DNA of 64,000 nt from Bradymonadales bacterium. GTDB lineage: Bacteria > Bdellovibrionota > UBA2394. This document shows, piece by piece, positions 12,620 to 58,509 of the stretch. The position numbers and the translations under genes were made by a program. How positions within the stretch are numbered: position 1 is the stretch's first letter; every line of letters starts with the position of its first letter. A model generated the notes under the pieces. That model searched no databases. It was not told the origin of the DNA and worked only from the letters and a program-made list of their open reading frames with translations. The DNA is taken from the NCBI GenBank assembly GCA_007693605.1, contig REDG01000055.1, positions 14,353-78,352 on the forward strand, given 5' to 3'.

Positions 12620-12634
12620 AGGGGAGTAGAGAGC

Positions 12635-16627: not shown

Positions 16628-16641
16628 GAGGTTTAAAAAGT

Positions 16642-16666
16642 TTCTTTGGTGGTGGTCACCAAAGAA
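16642..16666 (+). other. intra-operon hairpin (10-bp stem)
   Basis: TTCTTTGGTG-gtggt-CACCAAAGAA between the MotE-like gene and fliK; no U-tract. Confidence 0.35.
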
Positions 16667-16689
16667 GAAACAATAGAAGGGAGGACAGT

Positions 16690-17847: not shown

Positions 17848-17855
17848 GGAAAAGC

Positions 17856-18503: not shown

Positions 18504-18516
18504 GGAGGAGAATCTT

Positions 18517-18903: not shown

Positions 18904-18969
18904 GAACTTCACTTGGACTCGTAAGAGAGAGTGAGGTTCCTCTAATGAATAAATTGGAGGGACAAAAAA

Positions 18970-20346: not shown

Positions 20347-20371
20347 GCGAGAGACAACGAGAACCGAAGTC

Positions 20372-20417
20372 AGCGGGGCGTCAGAACTTTAAGAGTCTGA
20401 CGCCCCGCTTTTCTTTT
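20372..20417 (+). terminator. rho-independent terminator after flgE
   Basis: AGCGGGGCGTCAGA..TCTGACGCCCCGCT 14-bp GC-rich stem followed by TTTTCTTTT. Confidence 0.85.
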
Positions 20418-20486
20418 AGAGGAGACTAAAAAGCTCTGTTTTTCATCGAGTTAAACGAGTCGGCAAGATACAATGAGAGGGAAGCC

Positions 20487-23350: not shown

Positions 23351-23553
23351 TACAAGGCGTTATTTTTTTTGCGGCAGAGCATCAAGTCTTTGATTTTACA
23401 AAGCCGATTTAGTTTTTTCTGATTTCTTTGAGATTTTGCTGCCGTCAATTCAGGCTTTGGTCGAAAGCATGCTTGTCATTTCACGGGGCCATTGGATGGT
23501 ACGGAATGGAAAGTGCTCAATAACGAGCAAGGAACTTTAACGGAGAAAAAAAT

Positions 23554-25119: not shown

Positions 25120-25146
25120 AACCTTAGTTGGGTGGGATGAGGTCAA

Positions 25147-25177
25147 GTGATCTGAGACTCACCGAGTCTCAGATCAC
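25147..25177 (+). terminator. strong hairpin after flagellin (terminator or mRNA stabiliser; no U-tract)
   Basis: GTGATCTGAGACTC-acc-GAGTCTCAGATCAC, perfect 14-bp stem, 28 nt after the stop. Confidence 0.5.
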
Positions 25178-25252
25178 AAACACCTCAAGAAAGCTCCCAC
25201 ACACTGAGGTTAAAAACTGAATTGAGTGACCCGAGTCAGCAGGAGGTGGAAG

Positions 25253-25642
25253 ATGGGAAGCGTTCGAGGTCCTGAAGACCAGGACCAAAACTCCCCGAGA
25301 CGGAGTCCGCTCCTCTCTCCCGAAGGTCTGGCTGCTTTGAAAGCCCTTGCGCCCAAAGCTGGAGGAAGTTCTTCAGCATGTATTTGGGCCTGCCATCAAC
25401 TGACGCGAGAGCTGAGGTTTGTGGCAGAGAGCTATCAGAGGCAGAAGATTGGTGGGGCAGAGAGTCATGTTCGATTTGAACTGGACCCTGAAACCGGAAA
25501 GATTCTGGTCCAAGTAAAGGATGAAACCACGGGAGACTTCAGTTTGAAGCTCACCGAGAAAGAGGTAGAAACAATTTTAAAGACGCTGGAAGAGACCGAC
25601 GACAATCAAAGCACTCTAACCAGCTTGATTCTAGATTGTTAG
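25253..25642 (+). CDS. flaG: FlaG-like flagellar protein
   Basis: VRFELDPETGKILVQVKDETTGDFSLKLTEKEVETILKTLEE resembles the FlaG core; RBS AGGAGG before ATG 25253. Confidence 0.65.
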   Translation: MGSVRGPEDQDQNSPRRSPLLSPEGLAALKALAPKAGGSSSACIWACHQLTRELRFVAESYQRQKIGGAESHVRFELDPETGKILVQVKDETTGDFSLKLTEKEVETILKTLEETDDNQSTLTSLILDC

Positions 25643-25651
25643 TATGAAAGT

Positions 25652-25688
25652 GACGCCAGGAGTTAAAGCTCCTGGCGTTATTTTTTTC
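25652..25688 (+). terminator. rho-independent terminator after flaG
   Basis: ACGCCAGGAG-ttaaag-CTCCTGGCGT followed by TTATTTTTTTT. Confidence 0.85.
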
Positions 25689-25778
25689 ACAGGAAGTTTT
25701 GAGAGTGTTGACATGCTCTGTCATAGTTAAAAACCGCCTATAATAGGCTAGGGGCAAAGAATTTAGGATGCGATCAAA

Positions 25779-27251
25779 ATGACCTTTGGATTGAGTGGAT
25801 TAGGAAGTGGTATCAATTGGCGACAGCTAATCGATACGATCATTCGTGCCGATGAAGAATCCGTCGCTCGAACACTTGGGCGTCGGGAAGTTCTTGTGAA
25901 TGTGGAGAGAACCGTTTTTTCCAATTTACAAGGCGCCATGACAGGTCTTAGGACTTCGATTCAGGCGCTCAACTCCACAGGGAATTTTCGAACAAAGACG
26001 GTCACCTCGTCTGATCCATCAATAGTTACGGCCTCAGCCACAAATTCTGCGAGTGTTCAATCAGCAAAAGTAGAAGTGCTTTCATTGGCCACACAAGCGC
26101 AAGCGAGAATGAAGTTTGCAAGCACAGACGCAGTCGTTCACGAAGCGGCGGGCAATGCCGAGATTACGCTGAAGGTTCGAGGAGTGGAAAGAAAATTAGA
26201 GGTTCCTACGGGCACGACTCTCTCTCAGTTGGCGGAACTCATCAACTCATCCAATATGGGAGTGCGAGCCACAGTTTACAATACCAACGATGGCACTGAC
26301 ACTCCCGCTCGACTCAGCCTGACAGATAATCAGTTGGGGACTTGGACGGACCCGAGCGCAGAGGGTGACGAGGATTCGGTAAATATTGAATTTGTGGACT
26401 TCAGTAGCGTTCTTGACCAGGTGGATGAAGATCCTGAATACATTCCTGCAGAACAAACCGTGGTGAAAATTAACGGTGAGGAAGTTCGAAGAAACAATCA
26501 CTCGATTACCGATGTTTTGCCTGGCATGACCCTAAGCCTGAGAGACGCGAAACCCGGCACCACGGTCACGCTGTCTGTGAATGAATCCACAGGCAATGCG
26601 CTTTCTGCGATGAAAAGATTTGTGGAGTCCTACAATGAAGTGATTAACATCCTTCGCTCTTCTCTACGAGTGGACCTCTCTGAAGAAGTTCAGAGCAATC
26701 CGACGGCAGGAAACTCCACCCTAAGGGGAATCCTGACTCAGCTTCAGGCAGCAGTGACTCGACCGATTGATTCTGGCGGGCTTGACTCTATGTTTTCTTC
26801 GATGACGGATTTAGGGATCACTTCCGTTCGGAACACAACGGATCCCAGCAAAAATGGGCATCTACAGTTGAATGAGGCCCTTTTCAATGCGGCAATCAAC
26901 ACAGACTTTGATGGAGTGATTGATTTCTTAGAGGGCGCTCTCAAAGAGGACGGGCAAAGAGGAAAGGGCTTTGCTGACAAGATGGGTGACTTGATGACCA
27001 GTTTCTTGGCGAGTGAGACGGGCTCTATCACATCAACAATCAAGAGTTTAGACTCTACACTTCGAAGAGTCTCGGCAGATAAAATTAAAAGAGTGGAGCA
27101 GATCAATGCCAAAGAGAAACGGCTGGTTGAGAGGTTTGCAAGATTAGAGAGTCAGTTGGCGGGCCTCAATCAACAGCAGAACACTTTGGACTCAGCTCTT
27201 AACTCTTTGAATCAATTGCAGACTTTTATTTCAAGAAGAGGCAAGGGCTAA
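25779..27251 (+). CDS. fliD: flagellar filament cap protein FliD
   Basis: GLGSGINWRQLIDTIIRADEE N-terminus, C-terminal coiled coil (RFARLESQLAGLNQQQNTLDSAL), 490 aa. Confidence 0.9.
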   Translation: MTFGLSGLGSGINWRQLIDTIIRADEESVARTLGRREVLVNVERTVFSNLQGAMTGLRTSIQALNSTGNFRTKTVTSSDPSIVTASATNSASVQSAKVEVLSLATQAQARMKFASTDAVVHEAAGNAEITLKVRGVERKLEVPTGTTLSQLAELINSSNMGVRATVYNTNDGTDTPARLSLTDNQLGTWTDPSAEGDEDSVNIEFVDFSSVLDQVDEDPEYIPAEQTVVKINGEEVRRNNHSITDVLPGMTLSLRDAKPGTTVTLSVNESTGNALSAMKRFVESYNEVINILRSSLRVDLSEEVQSNPTAGNSTLRGILTQLQAAVTRPIDSGGLDSMFSSMTDLGITSVRNTTDPSKNGHLQLNEALFNAAINTDFDGVIDFLEGALKEDGQRGKGFADKMGDLMTSFLASETGSITSTIKSLDSTLRRVSADKIKRVEQINAKEKRLVERFARLESQLAGLNQQQNTLDSALNSLNQLQTFISRRGKG

Positions 27252-39156: not shown

Positions 39157-39828
39157 TTAGGGCTTACATTTCTTGCAGGCCCGATAACCTGCTTTCAAAA
39201 ACTCGATTCTTGTCGCGGCAAAAACTCGGTGTTCCGTGTAGTAGCCCCGCCGAATCCACGAAAGCGCCGATCGACAGTCGAGACGACCGTAAATCTTCAG
39301 TCCTCGGTGGCCACCAAAAGCTCCTGGAAGGGGGCTCAAGTAGATTTCACCCGAGGAGTTGATCAATTTGAATTCCTTTTTAAAGTATTGAGGATGAAAC
39401 ACGAAGACTTGTCGTCCGTTCTCATGAAAGTAGGCTTTCTTGGCAGAACGAATCGGTCTAGCGGAAGAGACCAGCTGAAACCAATTCATCTCGAAAGGAT
39501 TGTAGCGGACTTCGTGCCAAGATTTGCTTGGGGGTTCTGGTTCAACGGCTTGAAGTTTTCCGTAAACGCCCGCGTGAGGTCGGCGTCGACCTTGTATTAG
39601 AATACCCTCTCGAATTTCTTGGTCGACTTCAAATCGAATGTCATCCAGAAGAAGGCTCTTGGCATAGAAAAGATGCCTTCCGTTCAGACGATCCCAAACT
39701 GTCCATATTCCTCTGGAATTCTCACGAAAGACGAAAACCTCTTTGCCGATCCAGCTTGTGCTCTGATCTGCCAACAGGCCAACGGGGAATATGATGAGAG
39801 AAAGAAAGAAAAGCCTCAAAAGCCTCAC
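39157..39828 (-). CDS. secreted protein with C-terminal Ada-type zinc-binding-like motif
   Basis: Signal peptide MRLLRLFFLSLIIFPVGLLA; C-terminus CRSAL..FLKAGYRACKKCKP resembles the Ada metal-binding domain. Confidence 0.4.
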   Translation of the reverse strand: MRLLRLFFLSLIIFPVGLLADQSTSWIGKEVFVFRENSRGIWTVWDRLNGRHLFYAKSLLLDDIRFEVDQEIREGILIQGRRRPHAGVYGKLQAVEPEPPSKSWHEVRYNPFEMNWFQLVSSARPIRSAKKAYFHENGRQVFVFHPQYFKKEFKLINSSGEIYLSPLPGAFGGHRGLKIYGRLDCRSALSWIRRGYYTEHRVFAATRIEFLKAGYRACKKCKP

Positions 39829-39926: not shown

Positions 39927-41087
39927 GTGAAAGAGAGAGACATCATCGCAGCTCCTGTTTCAGATGGGTCGCGCAAATCCTTAAGTAAGACAGGCATCTA
40001 CTTTGGGCAAACTGGCCAGCCAGTGCTTGTGCTTGCAACGAGCTGTCAGGAGCTGAGCGCCCCTGTCTACGAGATTACTGATCCGGCCCCCGTTTGCGAT
40101 AGGCTCTCTGCGAGCCAACACCTCTTAGATAAAAGCTTTGTTGTCTGCTTGAAGTCTTTTTTTCAACTGGGTGGAAAGAGACTGATTGTGATGCCGATTC
40201 AGATTGAGACCGGCGTCGAAGATTTGGCTTCAGAGTATCGGACGAAGCTTCTGGGTGTTGACGGTGGCTTTGGCAATCGAACGGGCATTCATCGTTTGAG
40301 GGACTTTGAGGCCTGCGGCGACTTGTTGGCTTTCCCGCAGGCTGCGGTTGTCCTCGGATCTGAAGATCTCAGCGCGTTTTATCAGGAAGTTCAGAATTTT
40401 CTGGAACGGAGAAGCCATCATTTTTTACTGATGGATCCGCCCTGCTATACAGACTCAGAAAAGCTGAGAATTTGGGCCAGGACATTTCAGTCTGAGATGA
40501 GCGCTTTGTTTTTTCCTTGGGTTTCGGTGCCTGGCTTAGGCCTCACGCCCGCGTCCATTTTGGCGGCAGCACTGATTCAGCGGAATGATTTTCAGCATAG
40601 CATTTCGACGACACCAGCGAATCAGGTGATCGATGCCAAACTTGAGCTCCTGAAAGAGATTCCGAAGGCTGAAGTCGAGGCTCTTAATCAAGTTCATGTG
40701 AATGTCTTTAGGCGAAAGCCAAACTCGGACCTCGTTCTCTGGGGAGCCTTTACTACCTCTAAGGCCGGAGATCATCGCTCGCTCATTCACTTAAGTCGAA
40801 GCCTTTGGAGCCTGAAAGACGCCTTTGAGAGAGTCACAGAATCGCTCGTTCTTGAGGCTCGAACGGAATCCACCTGTGAAAAAATCCATCGAAGTCTTGA
40901 GGCCTTTTTAGAGAACTGTCAGCGAGAGGGACTCTTGGTCGCTCGACCTGGTCAAAAGGCTTATCGCATTGAGGTGGAGTTGATGGCACAAGGGAAAGGG
41001 CAGTGGGATTCTGGCATTCAGATTCGCGTTGATGTCGCTCTCGAAAGTGCCGACCGTTTTGTAGGATTGCAGCAGGAAATTTCGTAG
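39927..41087 (+). CDS. divergent CIS tail-sheath paralog
   Basis: Colinear with the sheath at 41902: NRTGIHRLRDF / KRTGINVFNN, FLLMDPP / FALLDCE, ALFFPWVSVPG / ACYFPWVRVYD, VNVFRRKPNSDLVLWGAFT / INLIRDFGDMGIKVYGARTLT; lacks the N-terminal PGVY motif; GTG after AAGGAGG. Confidence 0.7.
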   Translation: MKERDIIAAPVSDGSRKSLSKTGIYFGQTGQPVLVLATSCQELSAPVYEITDPAPVCDRLSASQHLLDKSFVVCLKSFFQLGGKRLIVMPIQIETGVEDLASEYRTKLLGVDGGFGNRTGIHRLRDFEACGDLLAFPQAAVVLGSEDLSAFYQEVQNFLERRSHHFLLMDPPCYTDSEKLRIWARTFQSEMSALFFPWVSVPGLGLTPASILAAALIQRNDFQHSISTTPANQVIDAKLELLKEIPKAEVEALNQVHVNVFRRKPNSDLVLWGAFTTSKAGDHRSLIHLSRSLWSLKDAFERVTESLVLEARTESTCEKIHRSLEAFLENCQREGLLVARPGQKAYRIEVELMAQGKGQWDSGIQIRVDVALESADRFVGLQQEIS

Positions 41088-41110
41088 GGCTCGCCCTACA
41101 GGCTGTAGGG
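41083..41110. promoter_or_regulatory. candidate enhancer (UAS): three GTAGGG/CCCTAC hexamers including the palindrome CCCTACAG-g-CTGTAGGG
   Basis: CGTAGGG (41083-89), CCCTAC (41094-99), TGTAGGG (41104-10), 105-130 bp upstream of the sigma54 promoter; the same CGTAGGG/TGTAGGG pair recurs at 48827-48853. Confidence 0.45.
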
Positions 41111-41213
41111 TTTTCACAACATACTCAATTGATTGAATTCAGACTTTGTCTCCCGGCTCCCCTTGTAGAGCCTTTTTTCTCGATATTGAGCCTCTTGCTG
41201 CATTGAAACTTTT

Positions 41214-41229
41214 TGGCATGCCTCTTGCT
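41214..41229 (+). promoter_or_regulatory. sigma54 -24/-12 promoter of the main CIS operon
   Basis: TGGCATG-cctc-TTGCT; one mismatch to TGGCACG-N4-TTGCW; GG/GC spacing exactly 10 nt; 40 nt upstream of ATG 41270. Confidence 0.65.
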
Positions 41230-41269
41230 CCTTCCTGGTTCCTGAAATGAGCCAGTGGAGTAAATAGAA

Positions 41270-41905
41270 ATGCAGTCAAAGGATTTTCTGAAATCATTAA
41301 CTCAGTTCTTAGTTCAGTTTTTGAATCGAGAACTTGAACGAGAAGGCTTCGGCAGTCGCTTTCGAGTGGAGGCGGGCTTAGAAGAAGTCAGCTCAGATGT
41401 CGACAAGAGAGGCTTCTGGAATCGTCTTGGTGGTCAAAGCCTTACTCGAGCCTTTCTACAGTCTTACTCCGTCCAGCGGATTCAGAACTCTCGAAACTCA
41501 GTTCTCAAAACAGAAGAGGTCGAGAAAGACGGAGAACGATTCTTTGTCAATCGTCGTAGCCCAGAGACCCTTGAAATCAAGTATCTTTTGGTGGGACCTT
41601 CTTTGGCCTCGAACGAAGGTCAAGAGCTCTACGCCGCCCTCTTTACAATCTTTTTTGATCACCTTCAAGTCGAGTGGTCCCGTGGGGATCAGACGGAGAC
41701 TCTTAAGCTCAATGATCTAAACGAAGAGGATGAGCCTCGAGCTCAAGCTTTACTTACAGAGCAGGGTATCTCAACGCTGCCTCTCTATTCATTTAGTGTT
41801 CGCGTGCCAATTGCGTCGGGTCGAGTGATATCTCAAGACCATCGTGTTTTGCACCGAGATCTTCAATTCAAACGAAAAACAACATCTGGAGGAAAACAAT
41901 CATGA
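41270..41905 (+). CDS. putative DUF4255 (Pvc16/Afp16 N-domain-like) tail terminator/cap protein
   Basis: About 210 aa, first gene of the operon just before the sheath as in many eCIS loci; LEIKYLLVGPS..EGQELYAALFTIFFDH resembles the DUF4255 core; moderate. Confidence 0.5.
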   Translation: MQSKDFLKSLTQFLVQFLNRELEREGFGSRFRVEAGLEEVSSDVDKRGFWNRLGGQSLTRAFLQSYSVQRIQNSRNSVLKTEEVEKDGERFFVNRRSPETLEIKYLLVGPSLASNEGQELYAALFTIFFDHLQVEWSRGDQTETLKLNDLNEEDEPRAQALLTEQGISTLPLYSFSVRVPIASGRVISQDHRVLHRDLQFKRKTTSGGKQS

Positions 41906-43044
41906 GCGAAATGACAGCGCCCGGCGTGTATACCAATATTACATCGAGCGGAAACAAACCTATTGCCTCGGTCGGATCTTCGACAGCGGCATTCATCGGA
42001 CAATCTTCACGAGGGCCTGAGAACCAAGCCACTCTCGTAACGAGCTGGGCTCAATATGAGAAGCAATTTGGGTCTTTCGGAGAATCCCAATACCTGGCCC
42101 ATGCCGTCTATGGATTCTTTGCGAACGGCGGAAGCAAAGCCTTCATCTGCAATATCGGAGCCGAAAAAGACGGACAAACCGACAATGATGTAACCGCGGC
42201 CTTAATGGGCGAAGATAAAGGTCCTGCCAAACGGACAGGCATCAATGTCTTCAACAACATTGAAGAGATCAGTCTGGTGGCTGCACCCGGAATCACTTCA
42301 CCAGAAGCCCAAGGCATTCTGATTGATCACTGCGAAAAATTAGGAGATCGATTCGCTCTTTTAGATTGTGAAGAGACCTTGCAGTCAGGGCTCGATGAGA
42401 TGTACCGACCAAAAGCATCAACCAATGCGGCTTGTTATTTTCCATGGGTACGAGTCTACGATCCCATCAAAAAAGAGAATGTCTATCAACCCCCGACGGG
42501 TTTTGTGGCTGGTCTGTATTCTCGTGTGGATTCTCAACGAGGTATTCACAAAGCGCCTGCCAATGAAACTCTTAATGGAGTGACGGGCCTCAAGTACAGT
42601 CTTACGAAAGAGGAGCAGAGCTTATTGAATCCAAGAGGAATCAATTTGATTCGAGATTTTGGGGATATGGGGATTAAAGTCTATGGGGCTCGCACGCTTA
42701 CGAATGACGCTGAGTGGAAATACATCAATGTTCGTCGACTCTTTCTCAATGTCAGAGAGAGCTTGCAAAAGGGCACGGAGTGGGCGGTTTTCGAGCCGAA
42801 CAACGAAACCCTTTGGGGAAATGTGAAGCGAAACATCGCAGCCTACCTCAAGACTCTTTGGAAGCAGGAAGCTTTGGTGGGGACCACTCCAGAAGAGGCC
42901 TTTTATGTAATTTGTGACCAAACGAATAATCCTCAAGAGTCTATCGACCAAGGGATTCTTAATGTCAGCATCGGAATCGCCCCTGTGAAACCAGCTGAAT
43001 TCGTTAGCATCACAATTCAACAAAAATACGAAGAAGATAATTAA
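41902..43044 (+). CDS. CIS/phage tail sheath protein (Afp2-like)
   Basis: N-terminal MTAPGVYTNI, AAFIGQSSRGP, GINLIRDFGDMGIKVYGARTLT, YINVRRLFLNVRESL, FYVICD; ATGA overlap with the upstream gene. Confidence 0.92.
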   Translation: MSEMTAPGVYTNITSSGNKPIASVGSSTAAFIGQSSRGPENQATLVTSWAQYEKQFGSFGESQYLAHAVYGFFANGGSKAFICNIGAEKDGQTDNDVTAALMGEDKGPAKRTGINVFNNIEEISLVAAPGITSPEAQGILIDHCEKLGDRFALLDCEETLQSGLDEMYRPKASTNAACYFPWVRVYDPIKKENVYQPPTGFVAGLYSRVDSQRGIHKAPANETLNGVTGLKYSLTKEEQSLLNPRGINLIRDFGDMGIKVYGARTLTNDAEWKYINVRRLFLNVRESLQKGTEWAVFEPNNETLWGNVKRNIAAYLKTLWKQEALVGTTPEEAFYVICDQTNNPQESIDQGILNVSIGIAPVKPAEFVSITIQQKYEEDN

Positions 43045-43068: not shown

Positions 43069-43491
43069 ATGGCAGAATATTTTTCAACATCTAATTTTGA
43101 GGTCAGTGTCGAAGGTCTTCAATCGAAGCAATTCAGTGAAGTTGAAGGTCTGAGGGTGAGTATTGAGAATCTTCCCTACCAAGAGGGAGCCATGCATCTT
43201 CAGCAAACCAAAAAGGGTCGTACTCGGTTCGATGACTTGGTTTTGAGAAGACGCTTTGATGGCGACAAGGAGTTTATTGGCTGGCTGCAGGAATGCTCTC
43301 AGAAGAAAGTCTTAAAGCGGAGTGGATCGATTATTCTAAAAGATGATGATCAGAAAGAAGTGCTTCGCTTTAACTTTACAGGGGCGTGGCCGGTCGCTTG
43401 GAAGGCCCCCTCCTTCACTACGAAGCCAAATGAGAATGAAATTGGAATGGAAGAAATTGTTTTGAGCGTCGAGACGCTTGAAATGGCTTAA
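43069..43491 (+). CDS. CIS tail tube protein (gp19/Afp1-like)
   Basis: 140 aa; FEVSVEGL..FSEVEGL..FDDLVLRR..FNFTGAWPVAWKAPSF typical of T4 gp19-type tube proteins. Confidence 0.9.
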   Translation: MAEYFSTSNFEVSVEGLQSKQFSEVEGLRVSIENLPYQEGAMHLQQTKKGRTRFDDLVLRRRFDGDKEFIGWLQECSQKKVLKRSGSIILKDDDQKEVLRFNFTGAWPVAWKAPSFTTKPNENEIGMEEIVLSVETLEMA

Positions 43492-43496
43492 ATCAG

Positions 43497-43540
43497 ATTG
43501 GGGTCGGGCTGAGATAGTCTCGACCCCAATTTCGCTTTGT
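43497..43540 (+). terminator. hairpin after the tube gene (possible attenuator setting sheath/tube excess)
   Basis: ATTGGGGTCG..CGACCCCAAT 10-bp stem followed by TTCGCTTTGT. Confidence 0.45.
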
Positions 43541-43557
43541 AACTAAAGGAGTGTGGG

Positions 43558-45081
43558 ATGAGCTTAGCGACTGCGGCACGAGACATTGATATCCTTATTC
43601 GGGCTCGATATCCGATCATCTATTGCAGCTCGTTCGAAGAGGCAAGGGTAGAGCGCCTATTGGAGGAGGTGTCCATTCAGAGAAAAGCCAAGCTCGTGGC
43701 CTGGACCCGTACTCGGGGCTTCGTTGATTCCAATGAAAAATCGATTGAAAAGATCCACTCTCCTGAGAAGGCCCTCGATTTTATCTCTGAAAAGGAAGGC
43801 CGTTTTTGTTTTCTTTTAAAAGACTTTCATCCCTATCTCAAAGACCCAGGAATCATCAGAAAATTGCGGGATCTATGTCGAGATTTAAAACTGACCCAGA
43901 AAAATGTGATTCTCCTTTCGCCCTGCTTGAACATTCCGTTGGAACTCTCGAAAGAGATGGCGGTTCTAGACATGCCGCTGCCAGATAGAAAAGAGATCGA
44001 GCAAATCTACAAAAAGATTCCTGCCGAAGTGGTCAGTTCCGATGCCGACGAGCTTGATGCCTGTATTGAGGCGGCCCTCGGGCTCACGGAAGAAGAAATC
44101 GAGAATGTTTTCGCCAAATCCGTCGTGTCGAAAGGGCAGGTGAATGTGGAAACAATTTTGAGCGAAAAGAGACAGTTGGTTCAGAAGTCGGGTATTCTCG
44201 ATTTCATTCCCGTACAAGAGAGTTTTGAAAACATCGGTGGCTTAGAGAATCTGAAAAGCTGGCTCGTTAGGCGTAGAGGTGGCTTTTCTCAAGAGGCAAG
44301 AGATATTAAGCTTCCTTGCCCTCGTGGAATTCTTCTGACGGGAATCCCTGGATGTGGAAAGTCTTTGACCGCAGTATGTACTGGTGCCGCATGGAAGCTT
44401 CCTGTCTTACGGCTTGATTTGGGCAAAGTCTTTAGTGGCCTGGTAGGCTCTTCTGAAGAAAATATGCGATTGGCCATTAAGACGGCAGAGAGCGTCGCGC
44501 CTTCAATTCTGTGGATCGACGAGATTGAAAAGGGGATGGCAGGAGGTTCCTCGAGTGGAGCAAGTGATGGTGGTACAGGCTCCCGTGTTTTTGGGACCTT
44601 CTTAACTTGGATGCAAGAAAAGAAGAAACCCGTTTTTGTTCTGGCGACCGCTAACGACATTTCCGGCTTGCCACCAGAGATGCTTCGAAAGGGTCGATTT
44701 GACGAGATCTTCTTTGTGGACTTGCCCAGCGAGTCGGAGCGCTTGTCGATCTTAGAAATTCACCTCAGTAAACGATCTTGGACTGTTGAAGGCTTCTCTA
44801 CCGAAGAGTTTTTAAAGCTATCCGAGGGGTTTACCGGGGCTGAAATCGAGCAGACCCTCATTGATGCTCGATTTGATGCTTTTTTTAGAGGAGATTCCCT
44901 GACCATGTCTGGCTTGAAGGAGGCCTTTTCCTCAACAGTGCCATTGTCTCGCTCCATGTCAGAGAAGATCAATGCGCTGAGAGCTTGGGCAAAGGATCGT
45001 GCCGTGTTGGCGTCAGGTCAAAGGTTGACCGAGACAAAAATTCAAGCCGTGCGAGCGCTTGAAATTGGAGGAGGTCTGTAA
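43558..45081 (+). CDS. Ycf46-like AAA+ ATPase
   Basis: N-terminus [22 protein letters not shown] resembles Ycf46-type ATPases; Walker A GIPGCGKS, Walker [11 protein letters not shown]-terminal [14 protein letters not shown]. Confidence 0.85.
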
Positions 45082-45473
45082 TGTCTCACTTCACAGAAAT
45101 CAAAACAAAACTGAAGAATCTTGAAACAATAAAAGAGGCGCTCGACGCACTCAACCTAGACTATGAATACTCTGAGGCGCTCACGCAGGTTCGGGGTTTC
45201 TATGGAGATCATATTGCCGCTGACTTTCGAATCTCTACCGGCACCGACTATGATTTGGGTCTCCGCCGAACGGAGTCTGGAGAGTATGAGTTTGTTGCCG
45301 ATTTCGAGATGTTAAGCGCACACAAATGCGATTACAAAGCCCTGCAATCAAAGATTCAGCAGAGCTATTCAATGATTCAGGTCAAAGAAGTCTTGAAAGA
45401 GCAGGGCTACGAGCTTGGTGAAGAACAGCTCGATGAGTCTGGTAATCTTCAGATGGTGGTGTCGAAATGGTAA
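45081..45473 (+). CDS. DUF1257 (Ycf35-like) protein
   Basis: [30 protein letters not shown] is the characteristic DUF1257 N-terminus; start overlaps the ATPase stop (TAATG). Confidence 0.75.
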   Translation: MSHFTEIKTKLKNLETIKEALDALNLDYEYSEALTQVRGFYGDHIAADFRISTGTDYDLGLRRTESGEYEFVADFEMLSAHKCDYKALQSKIQQSYSMIQVKEVLKEQGYELGEEQLDESGNLQMVVSKW

Positions 45474-45661
45474 AAAAGCGAGAAATCAGAATTGTCGTGG
45501 ATCCTGAAGGCAATACCCAGATTGAGGTCCTGAACGCAGAGGGGCAGGAGTGTCTCGAGTGGACAAGAGAGCTAGAATCTAAGCTGGGAGAGGTCGCGAA
45601 GAGAGATTTAAAAGAGGCTTATTATGTTGAGAGCTCAGAGAAGCTTCACCAAGAGTCTTGA
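45467..45661 (+). CDS. DUF2997 protein
   Basis: 64 aa; IRIVVDPEGNTQIEVLNAEGQECLEWTRELESKLG matches the DUF2997 pattern; usual partner of DUF1257. Confidence 0.7.
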   Translation: MVKKREIRIVVDPEGNTQIEVLNAEGQECLEWTRELESKLGEVAKRDLKEAYYVESSEKLHQES

Positions 45662-46508
45662 GCCGCCTCATCGGACTCGCGCCTTTTTAGTCGGGGACGA
45701 CAAGTTGGTCATTACCGACATGTGGCAAAGCTGGCAGGGATCCTTTTATCTCAGTCCAGAGGGCGGACAAAAGTCTCAGAGAGTGGGAGTGAATGACTTT
45801 GGGATTTTGCGGGGTGAAGAGCCTCCCATTGATCGAAACAAGGGGACCGGAGCGGTCTATATCTTTGGATGTCCCCTGCGGTGCAAGACCTGCTACCAGC
45901 CTGAGTTCTTCGGACGCAAGGCCCGAATGGAGTTCAGTGTTTCTGACTTGGCGCGACTATTTCTGGAGCTTCAAAGGGAAGGAGCAGCGACTTTGTCTAT
46001 TGTGATGGCGACACTTCAAAAGCCTGTTGTCAAAGCACTGATCAAGGCGAAAGAGATGGGTTTGAGCATCGATTGTGTTTTGAATTATTCTGGTTTTGTT
46101 TCGTCGAAGGATCTTTCAGAAGTTCAAGATCTCTTTGAAATCTTTGTTCCTGATGTCAAAGCCTTGAGTGAAAAATATCGCAAGGCACATGCTTTGTCTG
46201 AGGGCTATACAAAGACTGCTTTAGAGGGTGTTCGATATCTTGCTGAGAGCCAAAAGAACTTGATTGTGAGGCATCTCGTCTTGTCTCCTTTGCCAGATCC
46301 TCTGTCAGACATTCGGATTCTGTTTGATTGGATGAATCGGCAGGCCTTTCGTTTTCCTTTGTCAATTTTAACTCAGTACCTCTGCCCCATCGAGAAAAGG
46401 CTGTTTAGCTTGAGTGAAGAGCTTCTGAGTCAGCTACACGAACTCTCTGATCAATTTAGAGTTCCAATCTTTTTACAAGGAAGTGGAGACTATGATTACA
46501 AACTTTGA
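45624..46508 (+). CDS. radical SAM enzyme (activase-like); start uncertain
   Basis: CX3CX2C cluster motif GCPLRCKTCYQPEFF; about 290 aa; overlaps the neighbouring genes at both ends. Confidence 0.65.
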   Translation: MLRAQRSFTKSLEPPHRTRAFLVGDDKLVITDMWQSWQGSFYLSPEGGQKSQRVGVNDFGILRGEEPPIDRNKGTGAVYIFGCPLRCKTCYQPEFFGRKARMEFSVSDLARLFLELQREGAATLSIVMATLQKPVVKALIKAKEMGLSIDCVLNYSGFVSSKDLSEVQDLFEIFVPDVKALSEKYRKAHALSEGYTKTALEGVRYLAESQKNLIVRHLVLSPLPDPLSDIRILFDWMNRQAFRFPLSILTQYLCPIEKRLFSLSEELLSQLHELSDQFRVPIFLQGSGDYDYKL

Positions 46509-47565
46509 AATTCAAGTGCAGGGAATCTCAACAGACCGAGATCGGCTGCAGCAATTGAACTCTCCCACAGAGATGCTTGTAGAGAAGAGCCTCAATTCAG
46601 TGAGTGCCGCTTGGTTGGTTTATCCTGCTTCTTTCGAAGACTCATTGTTTTCCACAGATGAAGATTTTTTGTTTCCAGCAGCGATGCGTCTTATGACGCA
46701 GCTTCAAGAGCCCGAGTCGAATGACATTTCTGAAAGCATTTTCTTTCAAGGGCTACTTTGCTCCTACTCCATTCAAGCAAGTGGTTGTTTGGTGCTTGAG
46801 TATCGAGACCCTTTGATTGTGGCGACCGAGGTCGATCGGTCAGAGGCCTGGCAAAAGACCTCCCTGAAAGAGGTTGTTTCGCAAGCACTGCGAAATGCTT
46901 CAGCCGAAAGAGGGGGCCGAAGCCTCAAGGTGAGTTTTCAAGATGAGGCGGAGTTTCCAATTGAAAGCCTTACCAATATCGGTCAAACAGACTTTGAGTT
47001 TGTAAGAGATTTAGCTGAAAAGTTCGGCTTTAGATTTTTCTTCCATCACGCTGAAAAAGGTTCTGACGAAGTGACATTCTTCAAGCCGAATTTCTCTCGA
47101 CTTCCTGACTCAGAGCTAGCCTATGAAGACATCCAAAGCACGGCTTCGATTAAAATCTCTACTTTAAAGGCTCCCAACACGGTCTTTGTGCAGAGAGGGA
47201 CGGGCGTTGAAGAAGTTGGGATTGAGACCTATCAAAATCAGTTTTCGAAGTGCTTTGAGAAGAAGGTTGCGCTGAGAGAAAGGCTCGGCATTGAGCTAAA
47301 TTCCCATCTTTATTGTCCGGGGATATCTCAGCGAGAGGCACAGGAGATGGCTCAGGGGGAGTTTCTGGGTCGAATTCTTGAAGGGGATCGGTTGCACTTC
47401 CAGTCAGAGAGGGTTTTTCCCATTGGCAGTCTGATAAAGGTCAATCCTTCAGACGATTCGATTGTCACGGGCAGAAGGTTTCATGGAGTCTATCTGATCG
47501 ATCGTGTTCGGTCTCGGCTTGATGGATTTCGTTGGCTACACGAATACGAAGGAGTGAGACCATGA
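46492..47565 (+). CDS. gpD / VgrG-N (gp27-like) baseplate hub protein
   Basis: GQTDFEFVRDLAEKFGFRFFFHHAEKGSDEVTFFKP is the late-control-D/VgrG signature; no gp5-type OB or beta-helix follows. Confidence 0.75.
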   Translation: MITNFEIQVQGISTDRDRLQQLNSPTEMLVEKSLNSVSAAWLVYPASFEDSLFSTDEDFLFPAAMRLMTQLQEPESNDISESIFFQGLLCSYSIQASGCLVLEYRDPLIVATEVDRSEAWQKTSLKEVVSQALRNASAERGGRSLKVSFQDEAEFPIESLTNIGQTDFEFVRDLAEKFGFRFFFHHAEKGSDEVTFFKPNFSRLPDSELAYEDIQSTASIKISTLKAPNTVFVQRGTGVEEVGIETYQNQFSKCFEKKVALRERLGIELNSHLYCPGISQREAQEMAQGEFLGRILEGDRLHFQSERVFPIGSLIKVNPSDDSIVTGRRFHGVYLIDRVRSRLDGFRWLHEYEGVRP

Positions 47566-48335
47566 AATTTAACGCGTTTGAGAAACTGGCTTTTCAGGAA
47601 GAGAAAAGAAAGAGATCCCAGGGCTTTGAGAGCCTGACTTTAGAGGGCCTAGAGCTGTCGAGTCGGGACCTCAGCGATATAAGTAGTCAGGCGCTTGAAC
47701 TGCTCGGAGTAAAGATTTTACCGGAGGGAAAGCTGCGAAACCTTCAGGCTTTATCCGGATCTATTCGGGGTCTTCAATTGGTCAACTGCGAGATCTTTCA
47801 AAGCAATCTGACAGAGATTAACTGCCAAAGGGCCTTTGCGGTCGAGACGATTTTCGATCTCGTGTATTTTAGCCGCTGTAAACTCCAGGCTTCGGACTTT
47901 CGAAATGCACGATTTGTCTACTCGAGTCTGCAGGAGTGTGAGGCAGTCGACAATGATTTTAGTTTTAGTCAGTGGAAGTCTGTCCGCTTCATTCGATCTT
48001 CGATCTTTCATGAGAATCTTTGGTCTCAGGCCATGTTTTCTGGCTGTCTGTTTCTTGAGATTGACTTTAGCAAATCTGAATCCTTGAACTTTCAGAGTGT
48101 TCGACACTCCCAATTCTTCAATTGCGATTTTCGATCAGATCAAAGAGAGGCTTTAGAGGGAAGCAATTTGGTCAGTAAAGGTCCGCCCCCTTCAGTTTCG
48201 CTGAAGCCTTCTGAGGCGGAAGTCGATGAGTCAAGCTTAGAGCGCCCACGACCGCTTCGCCCTTCGGCGACAACGGACTTGAGCCCATCGAGGCTTGGCC
48301 GTTTTTCTGCGATCGAGGTGCCCCATGCAAAGTAG
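47562..48335 (+). CDS. pentapeptide-repeat protein with disordered Pro/Ser-rich tail
   Basis: About 20 consecutive pentads with central L/F (CKLQA SDFRN ARFVY SSLQE CEAVD NDFSF ...); ATGA overlap with the hub gene. Confidence 0.65.
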   Translation: MKFNAFEKLAFQEEKRKRSQGFESLTLEGLELSSRDLSDISSQALELLGVKILPEGKLRNLQALSGSIRGLQLVNCEIFQSNLTEINCQRAFAVETIFDLVYFSRCKLQASDFRNARFVYSSLQECEAVDNDFSFSQWKSVRFIRSSIFHENLWSQAMFSGCLFLEIDFSKSESLNFQSVRHSQFFNCDFRSDQREALEGSNLVSKGPPPSVSLKPSEAEVDESSLERPRPLRPSATTDLSPSRLGRFSAIEVPHAK

Positions 48336-51274: not shown

Positions 51275-52788
51275 ATCAAGCCATTTCACCACAGCGTTGT
51301 GTTTACTTTTCTCAAGGTCAAAGGTTAACCCCAGAAGATCTCAATGCTCTGAATGACTTTTCTTTGAAGAGATCTGCCCTGGTGAGTAGAAGCTTGCTGG
51401 GAGCTTCAGGTATTGTCGAGGGCATTATGCAGAGCTTGAGGCTGAAGCCCTTGGCGGACGATCCTCTTTCGTTGAAGCTCGAACCCGGCATTGCGATCAA
51501 TGAATTCGGAGATCTATTGCCGATCGAAGAGGAGCGACTGATCAGGCTCTCAGATTTGGCAGGCCCAGAGACTCAGACCTATTTCTTGCAGCTTCAGTCT
51601 GACGAAAGTTTAGAGGGCGCGTTTGTCGATGAAGAGCTCGACCAGTTAAAGTCTTTCAAGTTTAGAAATATCAGCACTCGTCTATTCATCTCAGCAGAGC
51701 GAGTCGAAGGCGCAGTAGAAATTGCAAGAGTTCGATTGAACAGTAGCGTCTTTGCGCTGAAAGAGTGCCGCGAAGATGAAGCGATCGAGGCCGGATTGGG
51801 CGTCATCGATCAGCGGCACGCCCCTAGAATCCAGCTCTACAGCGCTCGCGCCGTGGATTTTTCAAGACATCAGCAGATGAAACAAAGTCTTCAGTCCTTA
51901 AAAGAGGCGCTCTATGAGATGAAGAGCCGATACCCTTCGCTAAGTTCCATCGAGAGGGCTTTGCAAGATTTGAGCTCCCTAGAGCTGGAGATTGCTGAAA
52001 GAAACCTTGCTTTGTCTCGTTTAGATCTCGTGCTCATAAGGAGTCAGAGAAGCCTGAGGGATTTGATCGAAGAGTTGCGAGAAGTTCACCAGCCTCTGAG
52101 AGATATGGGTGTCGATTTTTGGGAAAGGCTCTTTAGTCTGATAAGCGATCTTCCGGGTGTGAGTCTTGTTCAAGAGGCGGCGGTAAAGTTTCAGAAGTTG
52201 AGCCACTTGGATCTTGAGATTCGAGAGCAGATTCTTGACAAACGAACGGATGAGGAAAAGCGAGTTCTGATTCAGCAAGCTTTGAACGACCTTCAGCCCT
52301 TTCGGTTTTCGTTTTCGAACACCCATGCCCTGGGCGGCAGTCTCTTTCGCAGACTGATCTTTTGGGACGGAGACGAGGTCTTTCAGAACAGTTCATTCGA
52401 GGGAGAATATCGAACCCTCAAAACTCTAAGGGCTGCCTACGAGCAGTCCGAGCTTAGCACAGAGAAGGGACTTTTCGTTTCTCCAGGAAAACTTCACTTC
52501 AATTTGCCCGCAATGGACCCAGAGGTCCTCAGTCTCTTGTTTCTGAAAATTTATAAGCGAAGGGGTCGCCAAGAATTCAGTCTCTCTTTAAACGCTTCTC
52601 CGTTGAAAGCGCTGGCCCTTCGGCCTCATGAGTCTGTTGATCGGTTTTTAAACATCGCCGTACAGATCCGCCCTGAACAGCTCGTCAAAGGGGTGAATCA
52701 GCTGGTGATTGATGTGGCAGAAGTGGATTTAGACTTCGGTTTGATGGCCTTGGCCGTCTACCAAGAAACAACAGGAGGAAAGCCATGA
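51271..52788 (+). CDS. hypothetical protein, likely baseplate-associated
   Basis: 505 aa; ATGA-coupled after the gpI-like gene, where eCIS loci place wedge extension or fibre-like proteins; N-terminal FSQGQRLTPEDLNALNDF; no family recognised. Confidence 0.4.
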   Translation: MNQAISPQRCVYFSQGQRLTPEDLNALNDFSLKRSALVSRSLLGASGIVEGIMQSLRLKPLADDPLSLKLEPGIAINEFGDLLPIEEERLIRLSDLAGPETQTYFLQLQSDESLEGAFVDEELDQLKSFKFRNISTRLFISAERVEGAVEIARVRLNSSVFALKECREDEAIEAGLGVIDQRHAPRIQLYSARAVDFSRHQQMKQSLQSLKEALYEMKSRYPSLSSIERALQDLSSLELEIAERNLALSRLDLVLIRSQRSLRDLIEELREVHQPLRDMGVDFWERLFSLISDLPGVSLVQEAAVKFQKLSHLDLEIREQILDKRTDEEKRVLIQQALNDLQPFRFSFSNTHALGGSLFRRLIFWDGDEVFQNSSFEGEYRTLKTLRAAYEQSELSTEKGLFVSPGKLHFNLPAMDPEVLSLLFLKIYKRRGRQEFSLSLNASPLKALALRPHESVDRFLNIAVQIRPEQLVKGVNQLVIDVAEVDLDFGLMALAVYQETTGGKP

Positions 52789-53291
52789 TTTTTCGATTCT
52801 TTAAAGCCCTTTGGGCCTCTCTGGTCGCGTTTGTTCGACCCTATGATTCAGAGGGAGGAAAGAATCAGAGGGGGATGCCGTTACTCAGCGAGTGGAAGCA
52901 TCACGATCCCTATCAAGCCTTCTTTAAGAGTCCGGGACTTAAATCTAAAGGGCAGGCTTGTGCGGCCCTCATTTTCGAATCGGGCCGTGGCAAAGGGGAG
53001 ATGATTCAGCTGCCCGCGGGTCGTTTTAGGCTTGGGGCTTGCTTAGATCAGGAGATTGTTGTTCGAGAGACAGCACGAGATTGTGAGTCTTTCTCGTTAG
53101 AAGTGAGCTCTGAAGTCGTCACGGCTCAGGCGGAAAAGGGAGACTTCAAGGTGAACGGACACAAACTCAGCTTTGCACGGCTTGTCGACCAAGATGAGTG
53201 TGAATTCAACGGGGTTAGATTTTTCTTTTTAGAGATTCAAAGCACAGAATTGGAGAGCGACGATGAGATTCTTCTTAAAGAAGCAGTTTAG
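52785..53291 (+). CDS. FHA-like domain protein
   Basis: LPAGRFRLGACLDQEIVVRE...FKVNGHKL..LVDQDECEFNGVRFFF follows the FHA G-R ... N-G ... D pattern; degenerate. Confidence 0.5.
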   Translation: MIFRFFKALWASLVAFVRPYDSEGGKNQRGMPLLSEWKHHDPYQAFFKSPGLKSKGQACAALIFESGRGKGEMIQLPAGRFRLGACLDQEIVVRETARDCESFSLEVSSEVVTAQAEKGDFKVNGHKLSFARLVDQDECEFNGVRFFFLEIQSTELESDDEILLKEAV

Positions 53292-55958: not shown

Positions 55959-56704
55959 CAGATTTTGGATTAGTTCGGGCGACTGTGACTGACAATGAAG
56001 ACCCCGATCTTTTGGGTCGAGTTCGGGTGCGATACCAGTGGCTTGGAGGGCCGAGCGCCCAGCAACAAAGCGCATGGGCTCGTGTTGCTCGTCCGCAAAG
56101 TCATGCAGGGGCGGGCGATTGGTTTCTGCCTGAAGTGGGCGATGAGGTGTTGGTTGGATTTGAGTTCAATCGAGTCGAGGCTCCCATTGTTCTTGCCTCG
56201 CTCTTTACAGATCAATCGGCACCGCCCAAATCAGATTTGGAGGGTGATCACAATCAGAACGGAAAGAACAATCTTCGCTTTCTAAGAACCAAGGCGGGGC
56301 ACCTTTTGTGCTTCGACGATCTAGAAGGTCGAGAATCGATTCGCCTACAAGACTCGAAAAACAATCGTCTTCTAATAGAGAGCCACTCGGGCAAGGTGAC
56401 ATTGGAGGACAGTTCCGGAAATCGACTCTGCTTGGACAATGAAAAGATTAGTCTGGAGGATAAGAATGGGAACGGTTTCGAGTTGCAGGGGGCTGAGATA
56501 AGGATTCGCTCTAGTTCAAGTGTCAAGATTGAGACGGCCTCTCGTGTGGAGATTGGGAAGGGCGCCTCTGAGGCCTTAGTGAAGGGAGACAGCTTTATGC
56601 AGCTATTCAATGCGCACACTCACCCAACGCCTCGCGGTCCGTCGGGGCCACCGCAGGTTCCTATGACTCCCGCCCAACTTTCACAGAAGGTGAAAACCGC
56701 ATGA
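55955..56704 (+). CDS. gpV / gp5-type spike protein (OB fold plus beta-helix)
   Basis: GLVRATVTDNEDPDLLGRVRVRYQW..AWARVARP..GDWFLPEVGDEVLVGFEFNRVEAPIVLASLF, then repetitive beta-helix and HTHPTP near the C-terminus. Confidence 0.85.
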   Translation: MTDFGLVRATVTDNEDPDLLGRVRVRYQWLGGPSAQQQSAWARVARPQSHAGAGDWFLPEVGDEVLVGFEFNRVEAPIVLASLFTDQSAPPKSDLEGDHNQNGKNNLRFLRTKAGHLLCFDDLEGRESIRLQDSKNNRLLIESHSGKVTLEDSSGNRLCLDNEKISLEDKNGNGFELQGAEIRIRSSSSVKIETASRVEIGKGASEALVKGDSFMQLFNAHTHPTPRGPSGPPQVPMTPAQLSQKVKTA

Positions 56705-58509
56705 CTGATTGGATGAGATATGTTGAGACCGAGCTGGCCGGCTTAGATTCAGATTTTTCGAAGGAGCTGAAGCCGTCCCTCGGAGCCCTGAAGGACTTCG
56801 ATTTCGATGATGAAATGCTGACTCGATTTGAGCGAATCAGAGAAGTTTTCTCCCTTTCGAAGGGGGAGATGAGGCTCGTGATTCTGGCCTTTGTCGACCG
56901 AGCCTTGTCCCATCAAGTCTTGGGGCCGATCAGGTCTCTTGATGATCTTTGTTTGTACTCGACTGAGCATACGATTCAACTCGATTCAAGAGATTCATTG
57001 AAAAGGCTTTTCAGCGAAAATATCCAGTTGCGAGATTCTCTGTTTTACTTCTTAGCCAACAGAGATTGCTGCCCAGTCTCATTGAAAAAGACTCCTGCAA
57101 AGAGCGTGTTCGGGATGTCAAAATTCCCAGTGGATAAGATTCTAAGGCTGGCCGCTGGAGGCGCTAAAGTAGAGATACTCACAGAAGACCCATTGCTAAT
57201 GGGGGCTCGTTTGGGTGGAGAAAATGTTTTTGAACTTACAGAGCCGACAGGGGCCGTTGAAGAAGTAAAGCTTTTCAAAGACTTGTTTGGGGCCATTGTT
57301 TGGTGTTCTCGAATTGACAAGCCTGAGGCTCCCATTTTTTCAATGGTTGATATTTGTATCACTTCAGTCGACTCTCGCAGGCAGCCCTCGGCGCAAGAGT
57401 ACCGCTTTAAATTTACTGACACTGAGTTTGAAAAGATTGACGCGATAAACTTGTGGCAAGCTGAGACTGAGGCCGCCAAGCTTCGATGTTCCACGGAAGA
57501 TTTGAAACGAGTATCCACCGTTTTTTCTTACGGGCTGACACAAATCCGTCCGATCGTCCAAGAGATGAAGGCCGAGCAGAGAGAGGCCTGGAGTTTCGAA
57601 GAGATGGCTCGGCTCTGTCGAAAGAGAAACTCCATTGAGCTTGAGGCTTATGCGCGAAGAATCGAAAGTCGATACGACTGGGAAGACCTGGTCCTTCCAC
57701 CTCCTTGCTTGTTGCAGCTCAAGGAAGCTGAGCGATTTATTCTTACTCGCCGCTCACGAAAAGAGCTGTCTCGGAGACACTCTCGTGGACAGGGTGTCAG
57801 TCTGGTCTTTGAAGGCCCCAGTGGAACTGGAAAGACGATGGCAGCGGAAGTTCTCGCAAAGTCTTTGGGCTTAGATCTCTATCAAGTCAATCTCTCTAAG
57901 CTGACGAGCCAGTTTATTGGAGAAACGGAAAAGAATCTGAGTGCCGTCTTTCGGGCGGCGCAGGATGCCGCAGGCATTCTCTTCTTCGACGAAGGAGAGT
58001 CTCTGTTTTCGAAGAGAAGCCAGGGCGCGACGGTTCAAGACAAATATAGCAATCTAGAGGTGAATCATCTCTTGCAAGAACTTGAGAGCTTCGAAGGCAT
58101 TGTCGTAATTTCGACGAATCTAGGCGAGAACATCGATTCAGCCTTTCTGAGAAGAATCAATTTCGAACTGCGCTTTCCCCGACCCAATGGAGGGGCTCGG
58201 CAGAAGATTTGGGAGCTTCATTTAAAGAAAGACTGTGGCGATTTGAGTGATATTGACTATCACGCGCTTTCAGAGCTTCCGTTGACGGGCGGGTTTATAC
58301 GAAATGTGGTCGATCGGGCGTCGGCCGCCGCACTTTATGAATCTCGACCGGTCTCCATGAAAGATCTGATGCATGCGATCAAGAGAGAGTATCAGAAAGT
58401 GAAGTGGCCCATTCAGCGGGAGCAGTTTGATAGTAAATATTGGAAGCTCGTATCTCCGGACTGGGATGAAAATCAAGCACGACGACGCTTAAAGGACTGG
58501 GCCGCATGA
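56701..58509 (+). CDS. AAA+ ATPase, Afp15-like
   Basis: Long N-terminal domain, then Walker A GPSGTGKTMAAE, Walker B ILFFDEGESLF, LLQELE..VVISTNL..AFLRRI. Confidence 0.9.
   Translation: MTDWMRYVETELAGLDSDFSKELKPSLGALKDFDFDDEMLTRFERIREVFSLSKGEMRLVILAFVDRALSHQVLGPIRSLDDLCLYSTEHTIQLDSRDSLKRLFSENIQLRDSLFYFLANRDCCPVSLKKTPAKSVFGMSKFPVDKILRLAAGGAKVEILTEDPLLMGARLGGENVFELTEPTGAVEEVKLFKDLFGAIVWCSRIDKPEAPIFSMVDICITSVDSRRQPSAQEYRFKFTDTEFEKIDAINLWQAETEAAKLRCSTEDLKRVSTVFSYGLTQIRPIVQEMKAEQREAWSFEEMARLCRKRNSIELEAYARRIESRYDWEDLVLPPPCLLQLKEAERFILTRRSRKELSRRHSRGQGVSLVFEGPSGTGKTMAAEVLAKSLGLDLYQVNLSKLTSQFIGETEKNLSAVFRAAQDAAGILFFDEGESLFSKRSQGATVQDKYSNLEVNHLLQELESFEGIVVISTNLGENIDSAFLRRINFELRFPRPNGGARQKIWELHLKKDCGDLSDIDYHALSELPLTGGFIRNVVDRASAAALYESRPVSMKDLMHAIKREYQKVKWPIQREQFDSKYWKLVSPDWDENQARRRLKDWAA

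Follow-up and report, generated by a model that had tools for sequence, protein, structure and literature searches.

Layout and conservation of the four-gene cassette

The 64,000-nucleotide stretch of Bradymonadales contig REDG01000055.1 analysed here (the window) contains, within a gene cluster for a contractile injection system (CIS), a cassette of four genes on the plus strand. In order, these encode a Ycf46-type AAA+ ATPase of 507 amino acids (aa; 43558-45081; PF00004), a Ycf35-type DUF1257 protein of 130 aa (45081-45473; PF06868), a DUF2997 protein of 64 aa (45467-45661; PF11211) and a radical S-adenosylmethionine (radical-SAM) enzyme of 294 aa (45624-46508; PF04055). The ATPase and DUF1257 genes meet at TAATG (45079-45083), DUF1257 overlaps DUF2997 by 7 nt (45467-45473), and DUF2997 overlaps the radical-SAM gene by 38 nt (45624-45661). 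The radical-SAM gene in turn overlaps the gpD-like baseplate hub gene (46492-47565, plus strand; PF05954), by 17 nt with a hub start at ATG 46492 or by 26 nt with one at GTG 46483; the ATG is favoured because hub orthologues start with MIT. Since all junctions overlap from the ATPase start through the hub gene, the cassette would be co-translated with the hub. Minus-strand open reading frames (ORFs) within the cassette were treated as spurious, being short and inside strongly conserved coding sequence.

The cassette had been recognised in a first-pass annotation made from the sequence alone, and its four overlapping genes, coordinates and junctions were confirmed by the ORFs and the sequence. 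In profile hidden Markov model (HMM) searches, the four domains it had named all exceeded their Pfam gathering scores: 90.9 bits for PF00004 (E 1.2e-25), 64.2 bits against a cut-off of 22.2 for PF06868 (E 1.5e-17), 50.7 against 24.1 for PF11211 (E 1.6e-13) and 40.7 against 29.5 for PF04055 (E 3.5e-10).

On the 5′ side of the cassette the CIS cluster comprises a sheath-like gene, a 211-aa ORF, the sheath gene (41902-43044, plus strand; PF04984/PF17482) and the tube gene (43069-43491, plus strand; PF06841). On the 3′ side lie the gpD hub, a pentapeptide-repeat protein, gp25, the baseplate wedge, several unknowns, an OB-fold spike and, 3′ of the spike gene in the position of Afp15, a second AAA+ ATPase of 602 aa (56701-58509, plus strand; PF00004). 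The presence of sheath, tube, gp25, hub, spike, baseplate wedge and AAA+ genes places the cluster among the extracellular CIS (eCIS) of the Afp/PVC type. The DUF4255 tail terminator (Afp16) had no Pfam match in the downstream ORFs, where divergent homologues may still occur. The two ATPases of the window share 24% identity, in the ATPase core only, which speaks against Afp15/Pvc15 orthology for the cassette member; they are of different families, and the cassette ATPase is, as first proposed, surplus to the one in the Afp15 position.

Loci and contigs compared with the window are given L-numbers (L001, L002 and so on). The cassette was kept in 13 independent related contigs wherever these were long enough to show it, and lay between the tube and gpD-hub genes in all seven contigs spanning that interval; such conserved synteny in independent contigs excludes a chance association. 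The window architecture recurred in L001, L002, L003/L004, L168 and L173, with ATPases 82, 74, 63, 63 and 67% identical to that of the window. Eight top ATPase homologues (100% to 51% identity) were looked up and all were in CIS loci, and a ninth (P0005) was found on L173 in a metagenome scan.

Two further architectures were observed. In the second (L007, L169), the baseplate genes are followed by DUF1257, DUF2997, a small hairpin ORF, the radical-SAM gene and gpD, with the ATPase gene divergently transcribed. In the third (L005, L006; including Breznakiella homolactica), gpD, an NrdG-like radical-SAM gene and the ATPase gene are located 5′ of a VgrG-like gene, and one small-protein gene, DUF1257 in L005 and DUF2997 in L006, is found near the baseplate genes. 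Metagenome contigs retrieved through the radical-SAM enzyme carried DUF2997 directly 5′ of it in six of six cases and DUF1257 in five of six, and gpD was seen in all three that extended downstream. Common to the three architectures is the direct adjacency of the radical-SAM gene and the gpD-like hub gene (window, L005/L006, L007/L169, L171, L174, L175); no other CIS gene abuts the radical-SAM gene in all of them. The cassette is established as a real, long-retained and inherited accessory of particular CIS lineages and as part of their operon.

Predicted activities of the encoded proteins

The cassette ATPase consists of a degenerate D1-like N-domain (residues 1-215) and a classical AAA domain, D2. 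The D2 motifs, Walker A (G262-S269), Walker B (D321/E322), sensor 1 (N366) and the arginine fingers (R377/R380), were invariant in 60 homologues (alignments of 18 and 60 sequences); the pore-loop region was also conserved, and the disordered C-terminal tail carries a conserved R-x-L-E motif. The AlphaFold2 model (predicted local distance difference test, pLDDT, 83) superposed over its full length on p97/Cdc48 D1-D2 in Foldseek, with a query TM-score (TMq) of up to 0.68 over about 550 columns. The protein is accordingly modelled as a p97-like tandem in which D1 would be dead, having lost its P-loop, and D2 active. The D1-likeness of the N-domain comes from the AlphaFold2 model and Foldseek and was invisible to sequence profiles, a profile search of the PDB giving marginal matches only; a profile-profile match between the N-domain and the AAA domain was rejected as an artefact of overlapping boundaries. 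The best sequence and fold matches were the type-II unfoldases p97, Cdc48 and VAT, whose D1-D2 tandem superposes on the whole length of the window protein. The window ATPase differs from these in having no N-terminal substrate or adaptor domain, no Walker A in D1 and an aliphatic pore-loop-1 residue (Leu).

Over residues 9-482 the ATPase is 44-47% identical to cyanobacterial homologues encoded directly 5′ of DUF1257 (L040, L044, L060, L077 and others), and on this comparison its Ycf46-type N-terminus, suggested in the first-pass annotation, is confirmed. It matched phrog_8638 at 9e-141, and its best GTDB match was 54% identical. Matches were confined to the classical clade (p97, FtsH, PAN), with no sign of membership in Clp/Hsp100, and PADLOC returned generic IetA AAA matches only. 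A neighbour-joining tree of the ATPase was star-like and leaves one capture by CIS and several captures unseparated. The sequence SRVFG in the ATPase was considered as a glycyl-radical site and rejected, as it aligns with the standard classical-AAA helix after pore loop 2.

The N-terminus of DUF1257, MSHF(T/S), is invariant and flexible, and a hairpin turn, VRG[YFW]xG, is conserved (44 homologues aligned); the turn resembles the glycyl-radical site RVxG[FYW] only loosely. Its AlphaFold2 model (pLDDT 85.6, predicted TM-score 0.78) had no significant fold neighbour in the PDB (best E 0.5). DUF2997 has a single invariant cysteine (G-x-x-C) and a C-terminal E-Y-Y motif (34 homologues aligned). Word-index homologue searches yielded only four proteins for the radical-SAM enzyme and six for a DUF1257-DUF2997 concatenate, limiting the alignment depth for these queries. 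The two small proteins occur as a natural DUF1257-DUF2997 fusion ORF in the viral contig L109.

The radical-SAM enzyme carries the cluster motif C83-x3-C87-x2-C90 (45870-45893), the cysteines of which are invariant in the window-type family. The closest solved structure was the pyruvate formate-lyase activating enzyme (PFL-AE; 3c8f, profile E 2.3e-7), and the short versions of the enzyme found in other copies of the module were NrdG-like (1e-22 to 1e-39), L035 alone among them passing the NrdG cut-off (133.8 against 126.1). On the basis of these matches and the common CX3CX2C motif the enzyme appears related to the glycyl-radical-enzyme activases. It differs from the PFL-AE/NrdG systems in that no glycyl-radical enzyme was detected at the locus and in having an extra N-terminal hairpin element. 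Indeed, no Gly_radical or PFL-like match was obtained in the 38 window ORFs scanned, which included every ORF of the CIS cluster (39927-63616). The sequence RLDGF near the gpD C-terminus was also rejected as a glycyl-radical-like site, being unconserved in orthologues.

The window-type radical-SAM family is small, with 10 representatives at E<=1e-30 among 1.84 billion; a narrower alignment was used for the metagenome scan since a broad one was too divergent. The nearest relatives of the window enzyme fell in no named NCBIfam family. The hairpin motif TRAFLVGDDKLVITDMW at residues ~18-36 of the window enzyme (45675-45731, plus strand) recurs in a stand-alone ORF of 48-55 aa located between the DUF2997 and radical-SAM genes of L007 (ORF at 1811-1978, minus strand) and L169 (ORF at 1714-1860, minus strand). 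The free hairpin ORF would therefore be a fifth element of the module, fused to the radical-SAM enzyme in the window.

Distribution and candidate roles of the module

In a scan with the sheath alignment, none of 72 loci with sheaths 30-51% identical carried any of the four genes, and many of them have tube, gpD and gp25 in line. Absence of the cassette from relatives, with no phenotype, had been named in the first-pass annotation as a finding that would speak against a CIS role: the close relatives all keep the cassette, and the distant CIS (sheaths at most 51% identical) are all without it. Among 1,425 eCIS operons surveyed by Geller et al., DUF1257 occurred once and was not enriched, and radical-SAM genes were depleted (PMC8213781); the cassette families are unmentioned by Chen et al. 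(PMC6899500), and in full-text literature searches no paper was found that connects CIS to any of DUF1257, DUF2997, Ycf46 or radical SAM. The view that the cassette is foreign to described CIS was borne out by these sources. The window shares sheath, tube, gpD hub, gp25, wedge, spike and an AAA+ gene after the spike with the described eCIS (Afp, PVC, MAC, AlgoCIS), but the cassette is present in none of these described systems, and its ATPase is of another family than that in the Afp15/Pvc15 position.

The module was also traced outside CIS. In a GTDB survey of 80 loci of species genomes with ATPases 44-54% identical to the cassette member, neighbours were assigned by HMM. The ATPase gene had as partners DUF1257 and DUF2997 in 15 loci, DUF1257 only in 19 (mostly cyanobacteria), DUF2997 and radical SAM in 10, radical SAM only in three, and DUF1257, DUF2997 and radical SAM in two; one locus had DUF1257 and a sheath gene nearby, and 30 had no partner. 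In IMG/VR, all four genes were present in 18 of 80 contigs, many of 100-480 kb, usually in the order DUF2997, radical SAM, DUF1257, with overlapping genes. Both surveys agreed with the first-pass statement that the ATPase, DUF1257 and DUF2997 genes keep company as a conserved set in cyanobacteria and phages. The radical-SAM gene, read in the first pass as a separate adjoining enzyme, proved instead to be a recurrent fourth member, also in phage contigs and non-CIS bacteria. Clustering of all neighbours gave no universal fifth family.

Copies without sheath genes were found in large phage contigs, Melainabacteria, rumen bacteria, archaea and Myxococcota, and a two-gene core in cyanobacteria. 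The cyanobacterial and plastid ycf46/ycf35/DUF2997 genes offer full-length ATPase homology, N-domain included, and an adjoining DUF1257 gene; they differ from the window in that the window genes are inside a CIS operon with a radical-SAM gene, the compared cyanobacterial loci having only the ATPase and DUF1257 within 10 kb. In Myxococcota the trio stands among FHA, VWA, pentapeptide, eCIS_core (formerly DUF4157), caspase and Afp15-like genes, and in a tree of poor resolution the myxococcal ATPase grouped close to the Breznakiella-type CIS copies; the myxococcal copies may serve CIS encoded elsewhere in the genome. In phage records, homologues of the ATPase occur in siphophages (e.g. Mycobacterium cluster O) and of DUF1257 in cyanomyophages, neither in the tail module, and the three matching PHROGs are all annotated as of unknown function. 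The cassette is neither a general CIS part nor CIS-specific. Since the module is portable, its function would be largely self-contained.

Two unusual arrangements were observed among the compared loci. An archaeal metagenome-assembled genome (MAG; L027, 11533-16203) encodes DUF1257, DUF2997, the AAA+ ATPase, a Mre11-like phosphoesterase, a Rad50/SbcC-like ATPase and an NrdG-like radical-SAM enzyme, an arrangement that looks DNA-related or defence-like. In a MAG of candidate division KSB1 (L031, 7353-13624), three Ycf46-type AAA+ genes stand in tandem, the first two separated by DUF1257 and DUF2997.

The cassette is tentatively read, at somewhat less than an even chance, as a portable protein-remodelling and radical-modification module that was embedded in the CIS and recruited to maturation or control of the baseplate hub. 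The module would comprise a p97-like hexameric unfoldase (dead D1, active D2), the DUF1257-DUF2997 pair and a glycyl-radical-activase-type radical-SAM enzyme, to which the small hairpin protein would be fused in the window lineage. Natural fusions and overlapping genes suggest a single complex of the small proteins with the radical-SAM enzyme, and the parts of the module very probably associate. The radical-SAM enzyme would abstract a hydrogen atom from a protein substrate, or modify it otherwise, and the ATPase ring would thread, present or release the modified protein. That the module acts on protein is suggested by the threading-type unfoldase character of the ATPase and by the relation of the radical-SAM enzyme to protein-acting activases. 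In the CIS it would mature or control the baseplate hub as a low-copy factor outside the particle structure. Its substrate there is most likely either the hub, whose gene is invariably adjacent to the radical-SAM gene, or a protein of the module that would go on to act on the baseplate.

Several observations weigh against this reading. The 72 cassette-free loci imply that CIS assemble without the module. The co-occurrence of the trio with sheath genes, proposed earlier as a survey, held within this CIS lineage and failed beyond it, with no sheath gene within 10 kb in 79 of the 80 GTDB loci or in any of the 80 viral loci; from the sheath-free loci it follows that a CIS would not have been the ancestral client. 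The window enzyme scored 39 bits against PFL-AE/NrdG-type NCBIfam cut-offs of 174-232, and the GGE motif was not seen in the radical-SAM alignment. The radical-SAM enzyme is also fast-diverging, with 53% identity between the window and L001 where the sheath has 93% (ATPase 82%, DUF1257 72%, hub 50%). Adjacency to gpD could be merely an inherited insertion site, and contact with CIS proteins, like the substrate, is inferred.

The strongest rival, though an unlikely one, is a stress or redox checkpoint, in which the module would sense the state of the cell via oxygen-labile Fe-S/radical chemistry and the ATPase and so gate CIS assembly or firing. It ranks first among the rivals because of cyanobacterial expression data and the company of FHA and VWA genes. 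Severe oxidative stress, darkness and (p)ppGpp induce the three-gene ycf46 operon of cyanobacteria, and an interaction of Ycf46 with KaiC has been reported (bioRxiv 10.1101/2025.07.21.665879); in cyanobacteria, too, the DUF2997 and ycf35 genes adjoin that of the Fe-S protein ferredoxin, fed7 (PMC4284462). FHA and VWA signalling proteins flank the myxococcal module and occur in Breznakiella-type CIS loci, and a small ORF of the window (52785-53291, plus strand) has a weak FHA/YscD-cytoplasmic match. On the other side, a regulator-type output domain was not found in the cassette, and the translational coupling of the cassette to the hub gene points to its production in stoichiometric amounts with baseplate parts.

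A bolder form of the hub-maturation reading, and a doubtful one, is a CIS lineage dependent on radical chemistry: the activase-like enzyme would place a radical or a covalent modification on the hub or DUF1257, the p97-like ring would handle the product, and assembly or firing would be gated by redox state or oxygen. If true, this would provide the first biochemical function for Ycf46 and Ycf35 of cyanobacteria and plastids. Hub maturation or control by the module would itself be a new, genetically tractable accessory function for CIS, those described being without a radical-SAM enzyme or Ycf46-type ATPase. It would also place the orphan Ycf46, Ycf35 and DUF2997 families, whose conservation extends from plastids to large phages, in a setting where particle assembly, firing and hub mass provide a clear read-out and might disclose their function. 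The module is now defined by four recurrent members and a small hairpin element, and the fusions argue for a physical complex.

It is improbable that the cassette is a hitch-hiking conflict or mobile module, that is, a self-contained defence, counter-defence or selfish insert with no role in the CIS. Its portability across large phage contigs, archaea and many phyla would suit such an element, as would its company of Mre11/Rad50-like genes in L027 and of a caspase-domain protein and an eCIS_core/M91 peptidase in L008; the likeness of the AAA core to the IetA defence ATPase is generic. However, the overlapping genes were kept in the operon as ATPase identity fell from 100% to about 50%, the module persists through three gene orders, and the window-type radical-SAM enzyme was found solely in this CIS arrangement. 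This retention through deep divergence and three gene orders makes hitch-hiking unlikely.

Still less credence is given to an analogue of ClpV (TssH) of the type VI secretion system, an idea of the first-pass annotation in which the ATPase disassembles the contracted sheath for recycling and DUF1257 and DUF2997 would be adaptors. An apparently active threading-type AAA+ gene does lie directly 3′ of sheath and tube, within a contractile-sheath cluster as in the case of ClpV, and a separate ATPase in the Afp15 position is available for other tasks. The idea nevertheless gained no positive support: the ATPase is p97-like and of another AAA+ clade and architecture, without Clp-type matches; its N-domain is conserved in sheath-free cyanobacterial loci (44-47% full-length identity) and so is not evidently specialised for sheath binding; and its gene does not adjoin the sheath gene in the other architectures. 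The radical-SAM enzyme and the non-CIS distribution are left unexplained both by this idea and by cargo loading. Least probable of all is the cargo proposal, likewise without positive support, that the ATPase unfolds effectors and feeds them into the tube while the radical-SAM enzyme modifies them: Afp15/Pvc15-type AAA+ proteins load eCIS cargo (PMC11495950), and no second AAA+ gene was visible in the compared stretches of L005, L006 and L169, but the window already carries an AAA+ gene in the Afp15 position, the module occurs where tube and cargo are absent, and no effector gene is consistently linked to it.

Spacer hairpin and neighbouring genes

The spacer of 66 nt between the tube and ATPase genes contains a GC-rich hairpin followed by a T-rich tract (43495-43539, plus strand) and then an AAGGAG ribosome-binding site (43546-43551). 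The hairpin has a fold energy of -30.7 kcal/mol (z = -3.3 against shuffles). A strong hairpin of unrelated sequence occupies the same spacer in L001, L002, L003 and L168, its position thus being conserved in five loci, and in one of the four related loci it is followed by a long U-run resembling that of an intrinsic terminator. The hairpin is probably a leaky terminator or attenuator between the abundant sheath/tube transcripts and the cassette and baseplate genes, and would be expected to lower expression of the latter relative to sheath and tube. Scans for promoter and terminator consensus sequences gave matches at chance level only, and Rfam and tRNA scans of the window gave none.

Among the other genes of the cluster, the pentapeptide-repeat protein between the gpD hub and gp25 (47532-48335, plus strand) has counterparts in the same slot in L001-L003 and L168, and the myxobacterial locus L008 also has a pentapeptide protein 3′ of the trio. 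Two sheath paralogues (386 and 380 aa; 39927-43044, plus strand) flank the 211-aa ORF, which had no family match, and this set of three genes is present in all related loci. Directly 5′ of the first sheath-like gene, L003, L004 and L168 carry ExbB/ExbD genes of the MotA/TolQ type (~4800-6100), L002 having a sigma-54 activator in that position instead. In the window, an ORF with Phage_L5_gp82 and Ada-type zinc-binding domains (39157-39828, minus strand) is divergent from the first CIS gene. A methyltransferase and a 603-aa minus-strand gene lie between gp25 and the baseplate wedge in L002 (15260-17718) and are absent from the window and the other relatives. The cassette-bearing CIS locus of L169 ends with a holin-like gene (Phage_holin_4_2; 16648-17094), which hints at particle release by lysis.

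Further 5′ in the window are a sigma-54 response regulator (8210-9751) and, between it and the CIS, a flagellar cluster (10883-27251, plus strand) encoding FliF, FliG, FliI, FliK, FlgE, a Maf-like glycosyltransferase, flagellin and FliD. This marks the source bacterium as flagellated.

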